In this document: one piece after another, positions 60,836 to 62,335 of the stretch
Layout: every line of letters starts with the position of its first letter
Position numbering within the stretch: position 1 is the stretch's first letter
Virus record (IMG/VR): IMGVR_UViG_3300037231_000119
Location: 98,447 to 162,446 of that record
Length of the DNA: 64,000 bases
Source: a virus
Strand: one strand, 5' to 3'
Translations under genes and position numbers: made by a program
Notes under the pieces: generated by a model
The model's database searches: none
What the model saw: only the letters and a program-made list of their open reading frames with translations
What the model was told of the DNA's origin: nothing

Positions 60836-62335
60836 ATGAAAAAGAAAAAAGACGAAAACCTACTTATTAAGGCCTATAAATATCCTCTAATTCTTTCTGC
60901 GGGACAGGAAAAAATGATTAGGTCCTGGATGGAACAGGAAAAGTACATATACAATTTCTTTATACAAAAACGTCAATACTTACTTTCCCTAAAAAGATCA
61001 AATTCGGAAGAATACGAGAAAGAATATAAGAAGGGTTTTGCTAAAACGGCCCGTGGAAAACAAGATGTGTTCGCCTGGAAAACGTATTGGAGCTGCGTAT
61101 ATAAGGAATTAGTAAAATCTGAAGAGGTTCTAAGGGAGTCTACAAAAGCAGAATATGATTATTGGCGATTTTCTAGTTTGGGAGATCCCTCTATTTCTCT
61201 CCCAACAACATGCGTTGAGCATGCCTGCGGAACCATAGAAAACATTTTTCTGGCCTATAAGAAAATGTGGGAGTCCCAAAAAGACAAAAAACGAAAAAGT
61301 AAGAAGAGGAAGGGAAAAACGAACCTCTTTCATCCCGAACAAAAGTTTTTAGTGGACGACACGTCTATACCTTGCGGGATAAAAGAAAATGACTGTTCGA
61401 TTGCCATACAGGGCAACTGCACGGCTAGGGTGACTGGCTTTTCAAAAATCGCCAAGGGTAACTATAAGGGGACTAAAGTCCCAAAGAGCCTGAAAATACA
61501 CTATCCGAAACAACACAGGGTTCCTGACGACGCTAGGGTTACCCAGCTCAGAATTATTAAGGACGGAGAATCGTTTTTTCTAAATGTGACCTTTGAGACA
61601 CAAAATAGGGCTGTCGGAGTCCTAGTCAATAATAGGCCCGTTGTCGGTATGGACTTAGGAACGGATAATAAAAAAAGCAAGAATTTTATATCTATGTCCG
61701 ATGGAAGTTTTGAAAGTTATCGCAATTATGAATCCTGCCGATTAATGGATTCTCTAGAAAAAAAGAAGCGTAAGATGCAAAAAGGGCTTAGGAATAAAAA
61801 AGGGGGAAATAAAAATAAGAGAGAGAGGCAGTCTAAAAATTATAAAAAGGCATATGCCAAGATTGCCAAAATAGACGCTCGAATTGCGGCTACTAGAAAA
61901 TATCATTCCAAGATGATCGCCAGCAATATGGCTGAGAGGTTTTCCGCTATTTATATGGAAAATCTGTCAATTGGAAATATGACGGCATCGGCTAAGGGCA
62001 CAAATGAAAGTCCTGGGAAGAATGTCAGAGCTAAATCTGGACTCAATAGGGCTATGTTGAATGTTGCGGCCTATGACTTTAAACAAAATCTTATCAAAAA
62101 GGCTAAAGAGTTTGGAACTGAAATATTTCATGTAAATCCTAGACTTACATCGCAAAGGTGTCAGGAATGCGGATTCACAAGTCCTAAAAATCGCAAGGGA
62201 ACTAGGTTTAAGTGTCAGAAGTGCCATTATGAGACTCATGCTGACACCAACGCCGCTAAAAATATCAAAGAGTTGGGTGAAAGCGGGCTTAATAGTATTA
62301 AGGAACTTCCTCCTAAAATTAAGACGATCCTATGA
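60836..62335 (+). CDS. CRISPR-associated TnpB/Cas12f-like RNA-guided RuvC nuclease (about 499 aa)
   Basis: GGGAG SD before the ATG at 60836. KAYKY.L....Q...YN OrfB-type N-terminus; RuvC-I GMDLG; RuvC-II YMENL; MTASAKGT...[16 protein letters not shown]; zinc ribbon TSQRCQECG...FKCQKC; Ruv[14 protein letters not shown]. Confidence 0.9.

Follow-up and report, generated by a model that had tools for sequence, protein, structure and literature searches.

The open reading frame at 60836..62335 (+ strand) of the window, by which we mean the whole 64,000-nucleotide stretch of viral DNA that was analysed, very probably encodes, as judged from sequence, a protein that descends from a TnpB nuclease and serves by itself as the effector of a miniature type V CRISPR-Cas system carried by a phage. 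The linkage that characterizes type V is present, in that a single RuvC effector is accompanied by a CRISPR array, and this association is conserved in its relatives. The phage carries a complete adaptive system, comprising acquisition genes, a tracrRNA and a 14-repeat array. We assign the effector to the TranC/V-U type of miniature type V effectors, which is a known kind; the variant is apparently unnamed, when the named subtypes are compared by model and the TranC clades by description.

The gene is translated into 499 amino acids followed by a stop codon, and Pfam, NCBIfam, an AF2 model and fold comparison identify the product (P0001) as a TnpB-derived Cas12-type nuclease. A Shine-Dalgarno sequence, GGGAG, lies at 60826-60830; an alternative ATG at 60800, upstream of this start, overlaps with the gene before it, and homologues of the effector begin at the position corresponding to 60836. 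The motifs quoted in the initial annotation were all located, and the RuvC triad is intact as it had stated. The RuvC-I aspartate, D273, lies within GMDLG (residues 271-275; codon 61652-61654), the RuvC-II glutamate, E375, within MENL (residues 374-377; codon 61958-61960), and the RuvC-III aspartate, D470, within HADTNAA (residues 468-474; codon 62243-62245), all on the + strand, as are the cysteine codons of the zinc ribbon (62159-62224; CxxC at residues 442-445 and 460-463), the IS605 TnpB hallmark beginning MTASAKGT (residues 382-405), and a basic tract at residues 149-161 (61280..61318) within the linker that joins the helical part of the N-terminal lobe to its beta-rich part. D273, E375 and D470, together with C442, C445, C460 and C463, are invariant in an alignment of 70 sequences. 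The protein matches the Pfam model Cas12f1-like_TNB (3e-18) and passes the NCBIfam guided_TnpB model NF040570 over residues 22-478 (114.9 bits; cut-off 100), and its AF2 model has a pLDDT of 86.7, with residues 491-499 as the only low-confidence stretch at the C-terminus. The effector is thus a member of the TnpB family, and its predicted TnpB fold carries a D-E-D triad and a zinc ribbon of the CCCC type.

The initial annotation had placed roughly 100 additional residues, relative to typical TnpBs, in the REC region. The protein is indeed longer, by a smaller margin: about 90 residues when compared with the 408-aa chain of ISDra2 TnpB, and about 68 when compared with the nearest TnpB-like outgroup, which has a median length of 431 aa. 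The proposed location held up, since the RuvC-I aspartate is at position 273 in the effector and at a median of 209 in the outgroup, while the stretch from RuvC-I to the C-terminus is of equal length in both, so that the growth does lie in the N-terminal lobe. In the secondary structure of the AF2 model, the N-lobe spans residues 9-256, and it is approximately 64 aa bigger than that of the nearest TnpB-like relatives. The extra residues are 66-77, 92-121, 153-165 and 207-216; on the basis of the predicted model, we place them in the REC-like helical part, in the basic linker and in the WED-like beta-rich part. The basic tract is itself partly an insertion compared to other TnpB-like proteins, and its mean pLDDT, taken in 10-residue blocks, ranges from 91 to 72.

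Immediately downstream of the effector is cas1 (62332..63165, + strand; 277 aa), whose start overlaps the effector stop codon. Its product exceeds the cut-off of TIGR00287 (137.3 bits; cut-off 71.7) and is I-E-like, since cas1_ECOLI is its best subtype model, albeit under that model's cut-off (136.1 bits; cut-off 215.6), and it scores 138.4 bits with the PADLOC Cas1e model. The next gene, at 63156..63425 (+ strand), encodes a free-standing protein of 89 aa that gave no Pfam, NCBIfam, PADLOC or PDB profile match by sequence and was recognized as Cas2 by its predicted fold. A single confident AF2 model, built on a three-sequence alignment (pLDDT 90.6, in one of five models), most closely matches the E. 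coli I-E Cas2 (4mak; TM 0.70/0.81, rmsd 2.1 Å), which points to a Cas2 product. The orthologue in the related phage locus L002 has a weak match to Cas2 CT1978 (E 0.0019).

A tracrRNA of approximately 190-215 nt, with estimated ends, is encoded at 63452..63668 (+ strand), where the sequence is conserved with the related loci L001 and L002. It is preceded by a promoter-like -35 site, TTGACA (63422-63427), and contains a 5′ hairpin with a covarying stem (63461-63476), an 8-nt anti-repeat complementary to the repeat (63626-63633), and an intrinsic terminator followed by a T-run (63638-63660), which was identified by a terminator scan. Two contacts between this RNA and the repeat covary in all seven related loci. 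The anti-repeat forms a helix of 7-11 bp in a fixed register, directly after a conserved purine-rich motif and ahead of the terminator, and in each of the seven it matches the repeat of its own locus; when pairings were made across loci, merely 3-5 bp were found among the types represented by the window, L001 and L091, and an anti-repeat of at least 8 bp would arise by random chance at a rate of 0.001. The second contact is a guide-adjacent, pseudoknot-like pairing in which the six loop nucleotides of the conserved 5′ hairpin base-pair with the 3′ end of the repeat from the same locus (6/6 nt in 7/7 loci; random chance 0.004), even as the loops take five different sequences among the seven loci. 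The tracrRNA and crRNA are thus the omega-RNA of TnpB split in two, reproducing its repeat:anti-repeat stem and its guide-adjacent pseudoknot, and the topology of the pairing between loop and repeat tail is the same as that of the pseudoknot in the ISDra2 omega-RNA (PMC10097598). Neither the energy of the tracrRNA:repeat duplex nor the fold of the tracrRNA (z-score -1.1) could be distinguished from shuffled sequences, and hence the case for this RNA rests on fixed position and covariation. Apart from the 5′ hairpin and the terminator, the seven tracrRNAs aligned poorly with MAFFT and RNAalifold, and a search of 60700-64000 against Rfam families gave no match.

The CRISPR array begins at 63694, about 1.36 kb downstream of the effector and on the same strand, and consists of 28-nt repeats and 32-nt spacers. 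Within the window (63694..64000) there are five complete repeats and the first part of a sixth; the array runs on past the point at which the circular record closes, for a total of 14 repeats and 13 unique spacers. The AT-richness of the tracrRNA-proximal end, and the placement of the sole variant repeat at the opposite end, lead us to infer that the leader is on the tracrRNA side. The array spacers had no match among GenBank phages; the spacers of the window and of L001 gave self-matches only when compared with the phage's own genome and all fetched loci, and neither four spacer seeds nor a degenerate repeat pattern gave a match in IMG/VR. In operation, the effector would bind the tracrRNA:crRNA duplex, probably as a monomer similar to TnpB and Cas12n, locate a 5′ PAM and form an R-loop over a guide derived from a 32-nt spacer, whereupon its single RuvC site would cut both DNA strands. 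The enlarged basic N-lobe would make additional contacts with the guide RNA or DNA, as has been reported for Cas12n. Cas1-Cas2 would insert new spacers into the array at its presumed leader end, next to the tracrRNA, and the phage could deploy the system against competing phages, other mobile elements or its host. The covarying pseudoknot and anti-repeat contacts provide a ready single-guide design, and the effector would be one more candidate nuclease of fewer than 500 aa, for which the value as a genome editor that was proposed initially is plausible.

The family of the effector is rare and phage-borne, with members of 412-558 aa, and forms a supported clade (SH-aLRT 99, from a quick tree) apart from, but next to, bacterial TnpBs. 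All of the family loci are on phage-like contigs, and every locus with enough flanking DNA carries repeats, while the presence of cas1-cas2 is patchy. A tracrRNA together with repeats was found in L001, L004, L091, L096, L101 and L181; the 558-aa member has an adjoining 11-repeat array with the same 28/32 geometry as here, and in L183 the repeats start inside the 3′ end of the ORF. Scanning IMG/VR and metagenomes with the family alignment turned up nothing beyond distant TnpBs, matched over the C-terminal half, and a genome scan added one further true member, L101. Relatives of 412-452 aa already have the tracrRNA and array arrangement, some of them with cas1-cas2, and the two members with the largest N-lobes are on a long derived branch. 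Because these small relatives already run the arrangement, growth of the N-lobe came after recruitment to CRISPR and did not enable it. The description of the effector as an evolutionary intermediate between TnpB and Cas12 is therefore only partly upheld: the protein is TnpB-like and CRISPR-associated, with cas1, cas2, tracrRNA and array conserved, but it does not mark a step toward the large Cas12s and instead represents a derived tip of one among many independent TnpB-to-Cas12 offshoots, about 50 of which have been described (PMC10691335).

A broader reading, which we offer tentatively and consider rather unlikely in its entirety, is that this phage-borne clade is a type V lineage, as yet unnamed, in which the steps leading from a transposon nuclease to an adaptive CRISPR system have survived alongside one another. 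These would comprise repeats within the 3′ end of the ORF (L183), a tracrRNA that is encoded separately and accompanied by a single repeat or a mini-array (L091, L004, L096 and L101), a captured I-E-like Cas1-Cas2 with 28/32 arrays (L181, L003, L001 and this phage), and growth of the N-lobe last, and the cassette might also be exchanged among related phages by way of homology beginning at its terminal repeat, with guide-directed homing or spacer-mediated recombination as the mechanism. The TnpB-to-Cas12 transition is an active question, as illustrated by Cas12n, TranC and Cas12p, and the clade offers a natural series in which near-TnpB-sized effectors of 412-452 aa have a split guide and close relatives occur with or without a class-1-type Cas1-Cas2. 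The proposed order, in which the RNA is split, adaptation genes are captured and the protein then grows, is directly testable.

The flanks of the cassette raise the possibility, which we consider very unlikely, that it is mainly a selfish spreading or regulatory device and not a weapon, with the terminal repeat and the adjoining phage flank acting as a fixed guide in a manner resembling TnpB homing. The whole cassette is flanked by two imperfect direct copies of a sequence of about 80 bp, the left one at 60760..60838 (+ strand) and the right one beginning exactly after the last repeat (G000:629-708). The 32-nt pseudo-spacer that follows this repeat matches the related phage L003, in which the cassette is placed one gene further along, at 30 of 32 positions, and the left copy in its own phage at only 27 of 32, most of the differences falling in the half nearer the repeat; furthermore, in L091 a tracrRNA and a single repeat run into the start of the next gene. 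However, the 13 unique spacers and the adaptation module argue for ordinary adaptive targeting, the duplication is confined to this phage and absent from L001, and spacer-mediated or illegitimate recombination would produce the same junction. It is extremely improbable that the ORF is an ordinary IS200/IS605 TnpB that uses its own omega-RNA and lies by chance, with no functional link, beside an array and a class-1-derived adaptation module. The 28/32 geometry and the Cas1-Cas2 do look class 1 (I-E/I-F-like), guided_TnpB is a generic TnpB model and was the only one passed, and the best structural matches of the predicted fold are the TnpBs of ISDra2 and ISFba1 (8H1J, 8EXA and 8IAZ). The superposition bore out the TnpB-like character noted initially, since ISDra2 TnpB aligned with a Z of 24.8 (rmsd 2.7 Å over 352 residues, with a TnpB chain of 362 residues) compared to approximately 19-20 for Cas12f. 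These TnpBs share with the effector the domain order, the D-E-D RuvC, the CCCC zinc ribbon and a guide with a pseudoknot and terminal stem; they differ in that the effector has an N-lobe larger by about 64-80 aa, just ~22% identity, a split guide, Cas1-Cas2 and no TnpA. The gene is single-copy in the circular 162,319-bp phage genome, no Y1 transposase (TnpA) was found in these 162 kb by a search in which control genomes did score, and cas1 overlaps the effector stop; for these reasons the effector is not a gene of an IS element, and it also failed the IS200_TnpB model NF038281 (78.7 bits; cut-off 425). Near-identical homologues in array-less IS elements, which would have spoken for such an element, were not what we found: the nearest homologue is 51% identical, phage-borne, and accompanied by cas1 and a 20-repeat array. 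The functional link is further indicated by the recurrence of the gene order, with cas1 immediately after the effector in the loci of P0002, P0004, P0006 and P0121, among effectors only 33-51% identical, by the fact that the anti-repeat of the tracrRNA, and likewise its pseudoknot strand, covaries with the repeats, and by the retention of tracrRNA and repeats in relatives that have no cas1-cas2.

With a TnpB-derived type V effector as the preferred reading, it is quite unlikely that the protein is simply a member of the named type V-N (Cas12n, formerly V-U4) and hence already known. RdCas12n (9J09) is the best sequence-profile match to the family among solved structures (155.8 bits, E 1.8e-44, nearly full-length), the PADLOC Cas12u4 model, for which no cut-off is given, reaches 149 bits with residues 2-480 of the effector and ranks first for the smaller members P0005 and P0121 (about 210 bits), and Cas12n, which is TnpB-sized, uses a tracrRNA with a crRNA and has been described as an early TnpB-to-Cas12 intermediate, likewise has Arg/Lys-rich expansions of REC and WED (PMC12216341). 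The Cas12u4 score is nevertheless tied with that of the PADLOC Cas12f model (150 bits), and ordinary TnpB models score the effector in the same range. The RuvC-III motif is of a different class, NADxN/HADTN across the family here and DRDLN in the RdCas12n alignment, and NADxN and DRDxN motifs mark two different major TnpB clades (PMC10691335). Cas12n, for which an A-rich PAM was reported, ends in a disordered C-terminal tail, and its tracrRNA region and ORF overlap (PMC12216341), two features that are absent here, where the tracrRNA follows cas2 with its own terminator and it is cas1 that overlaps the stop codon. The Cas12n nucleases characterized in PMC12216341 are from Actinobacteria, whereas the loci of this family are phage-borne. 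The system here has 28-nt repeats and Cas1-Cas2, while most V-U variants have arrays but no other cas genes (PMC10691335). Cas12f (V-F; AsCas12f 8J12/7WJU) shares the NADxN RuvC-III motif and tracrRNA dependence and acts as an asymmetric homodimer; the effector did not pass the Cas12f2 model NF049972 (68.3 bits; cut-off 450), nor that of V-U2 (C2c8), NF038192 (72.9 bits; cut-off 350).

The type V effector described here resembles TranC, which, as the work of Jin et al. (Cell 2025) is cited in PMC13565253 and in the preprint bioRxiv 10.64898/2026.03.27.714800, is TnpB-derived, near TnpB size and array-adjacent, with a split omega-RNA, and which includes the Caudoviricetes-encoded CauTranC9. The likeness consists in a TnpB-like protein that lies next to bacterial TnpBs in the tree, is CRISPR-associated and has a split guide with two covarying contacts. 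According to the preprint, TranC clades 3, 9, 11 and 20 have repeats of 32-38 nt and are without adaptation genes, whereas the repeats here are 28 nt and cas1-cas2 are present; LaTranC (9JFQ) is a moderate match to the effector (Z 17.2, 60 bits over the C-terminal part). Cas12p ('Cas12 hacker') is also phage-encoded, uses a tracrRNA and crRNA and has been proposed as an early TnpB-derived Cas12, with a size of 500-700 aa and activation by host thioredoxin (bioRxiv 10.1101/2025.01.20.633832), and its structure (9JFS) matches the effector weakly (68 bits over the C-terminal part, Z 17.1). A phage-encoded CRISPR system with an adaptation module is likewise found in Vibrio phage ICP1 (PMC11656645), which is of class 1, type I-F, and in place of that effector machinery the phage studied here has a single TnpB-like protein.

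The effector gene (60836-62335, + strand) encodes a 499-aa protein, P0001, has a ribosome-binding site (GGGAG) 5 nt upstream and occurs as one copy in the phage genome. Its catalytic site is intact: the RuvC motifs quoted in the initial annotation, GMDLG (D273), MENL (E375) and HADTNAA (D470), were all found, as were the zinc-ribbon CxxC pairs (442-445 and 460-463), the conserved block at residues 382-405 and the basic tract at 149-161. D273, E375, D470 and the four cysteines were unchanged in 70 aligned relatives. Pfam detected a Cas12f1-like TNB domain, with OrfB_IS605 and HTH_OrfB weak, and the protein exceeded the cut-off of the generic NCBIfam guided_TnpB model (114.9 bits vs 100) while falling far under every cut-off of the NCBIfam subtype models IS200_TnpB, IS607_TnpB, C2c8 and Cas12f2.

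The predicted fold is also that of a TnpB. The AF2 model, made from an alignment of 70 sequences (mean pLDDT 86.7), was closest to ISDra2 TnpB (Z 24.8, rmsd 2.7 A, 352 residues aligned, chain 362), followed by ISFba1 TnpB (Z 23.5), with lower Z values for AsCas12f (~19.7), LaTranC (17.2) and Cas12p (17.1). The nearest TnpB-like outgroup has a median length of 431 aa and a median RuvC-I Asp position of 209, against 273 in the effector. Beyond RuvC-I the lengths are equal, and insertions were mapped at residues 66-77, 92-121, 153-165 and 207-216. The N-terminal lobe is therefore expanded, as had been proposed from the sequence.

The window is the terminal part of a 162,446-bp IMG/VR virus record, and its boundary splits the CRISPR array. 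The record is listed as linear, and its ends share 127 bp inside the array (window 63694-64000, G000:C1:1-127 of the whole record), two unique spacers among them, which makes the 162,319-bp genome circular or circularly permuted. The effector is surrounded by phage genes, including a 983-aa ORF and an SLT lysozyme, and no Y1 transposase was found in the 162-kb phage genome. An I-E-like cas1 overlaps the effector stop and is followed by an 89-aa ORF (63156-63425) that had no sequence-family match; its fold prediction best matched E. coli Cas2 (TM 0.70/0.81), with confidence in one of five models only. At 0.29, the G+C content of this cas2 is far below that of cas1 (0.42), the effector (0.39) and the phage genome as a whole (0.44). 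Downstream lie 268 nt of non-coding sequence ending in a strong terminator, and past it an array that spans the contig junction, with 14 repeats (28 nt each) separated by 13 unique spacers of 32 nt. The sole variant repeat is the eleventh, distant from the tracrRNA-proximal end. No spacer target was found in the phage's own genome, the fetched loci or GenBank phages, and four spacer seeds had no match in IMG/VR. Spacers 6 and 7 (G000:C1:149-240) start exactly with ATG and resemble the first codons of genes, with no target matched.

The non-coding stretch 3′ of cas2, which is conserved with L001 and L002, two loci of homologues, carries a covarying two-RNA architecture. In all seven loci an anti-repeat, positioned between a conserved purine-rich motif and the terminator, pairs with the central part of its own locus's repeat over 7-11 uninterrupted Watson-Crick base pairs, and the helix always ends 8-10 nt short of the repeat 3′ end. 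The random probability of at least 8 such pairs is 0.001, and the anti-repeats of the window, L001 and L091 (the locus of P0003) are unrelated in sequence, with cross-matches of 3-5 bp. A conserved 5′ hairpin, whose stem covaries too, has a 6-nt loop that is fully complementary, with a single bulge, to the 3′-terminal bases of its own locus's repeat, again in 7/7 loci and with five different loop sequences (random probability 0.004). The tracrRNA:repeat duplex energy and the tracrRNA fold z-score, each alone, were not significant. In the ISDra2 omega-RNA, a 5′ scaffold segment pairs just before the guide, a pseudoknot reported to be conserved in Cas12 guide RNAs (PMC10097598); likewise, the 5′ loop of these tracrRNAs pairs with the bases that immediately precede the guide. 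Together with the anti-repeat contact, this pseudoknot-type pairing identifies the guide RNA as a split omega-RNA, one part being the tracrRNA and the other the crRNAs encoded in the array.

Full-length homologues of P0001 are rare. The best, P0002 (480 aa), is 51% identical and the next ones 33-39%; a profile run against 1.84 billion representatives added about a dozen clusters above 370 bits before a gradual fall into ordinary TnpBs. In a quick maximum-likelihood tree these proteins formed a clade (SH-aLRT 99) adjoining bacterial TnpBs, with P0001 and P0002 together on a long branch. Bacterial TnpBs similar to the C-terminal half often had several loci per record and are read as ordinary IS copies, and every readable homologue context was phage-like. 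Linkage of the effector with array and adaptation genes is conserved in the family: cas1 lies immediately 3′ of the effector in the loci of P0002, P0004, P0006 and P0121, and L001 has 20 repeats nearly identical to those of the window. The loci of P0005 and P0007, and L101, are without cas1-cas2, yet keep a tracrRNA and small arrays; in the tree, carriers and non-carriers of cas1-cas2 are close sister pairs. L101 (4998-6289), from a MAG labelled Deltaproteobacteria (bog_1112), has a family effector disrupted by a frameshift within an A-rich tract, which may reflect either a pseudogene or faulty assembly; the tracrRNA and three repeats are still present 3′ of it.

The locus of P0133 (558 aa, the largest member seen; L184:4001-6800) has 11 repeats in the window geometry of 28-nt repeats and 32-nt spacers. 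P0133 owes its extra length to sequence N-terminal of the RuvC-I Asp, to which no Pfam family matched; its locus is without cas1 and has a 93-aa ORF of unknown family 3′ of the effector. For P0003 (438 aa; L091:2866-3090) a tracrRNA and terminator are followed by one repeat, whose "spacer" extends into the next gene's ribosome-binding site and start, with no second repeat before the contig end. A more distant phage relative, P0134 (430 aa; L183:2890-3130), has four degenerate repeats spaced ~57-60 nt apart, which look like an array budding from an omega-RNA 3′ end. The first of these begins inside the ORF 3′ end, overlapping the nuclease stop codon, and neither a terminator nor a separate tracrRNA was seen there. 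The proposal of a TnpB-to-Cas12 intermediate and compact editor was borne out in part: P0001 is a real CRISPR-recruited, TnpB-like protein and a reasonable compact-nuclease candidate, but it is the derived tip of one of many independent TnpB-to-Cas12 offshoots, and smaller relatives already use the same system.

An imperfect direct duplication of ~80 bp brackets the whole cassette. The sequence past the last repeat (G000:C1:629-708 = L100:629-708) duplicates window 60760-60838 at ~87% identity, the left copy being the 3′ end of the preceding gene, up to the effector ATG. This homology starts exactly where the last repeat ends, and the 32-nt "pseudo-spacer" there matches a related phage, L003, at 30/32 positions and its own left copy at 27/32. 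The two small flanking genes are contiguous in L003 (4607-5001, against window 60486-60838), where the cassette is displaced downstream by one gene. The backbones share 68-83% nucleotide identity and the effectors just 36%; these are therefore divergent cassettes at neighbouring sites, in one hotspot beside the lysozyme gene. Three routes would fit the junction: homing directed by a guide, recombination mediated by a spacer, or plain illegitimate recombination. As for function, a crRNA:tracrRNA would guide the effector, whose single RuvC site would make a PAM-dependent cut in double-stranded DNA; Cas1-Cas2 would take up spacers at the tracrRNA-proximal array end, and the phage might turn the system on its host, on rival phages or on other mobile elements.

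RdCas12n (155.8 bits, full length) was the solved structure that scored highest against the family profile, and PADLOC scored a Cas12u4 model level with a Cas12f model on the effector. RuvC-III reads NADxN in the family and DRDxN in Cas12n, motifs that separate two major TnpB clades (PMC10691335). The disordered C-terminal tail and ORF-embedded tracrRNA of Cas12n (PMC12216341) are absent here; in contrast to Cas12n, the window system carries cas1-cas2 and all family loci are phage-borne. Cas12p, also a phage-encoded miniature effector, is a distant relative only. The family fits the TranC concept in its TnpB-like protein, array and split omega-RNA; in the TranC clades studied to date, repeats measure 32-38 nt and adaptation genes are lacking (bioRxiv 10.64898/2026.03.27.714800). 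Since ~50 independent origins of Cas12 from TnpB have been described, with adaptation modules captured at least 12 times (PMC10691335), this kind of system is established. The family lineage may already be present, unnamed, in catalogues of that type.
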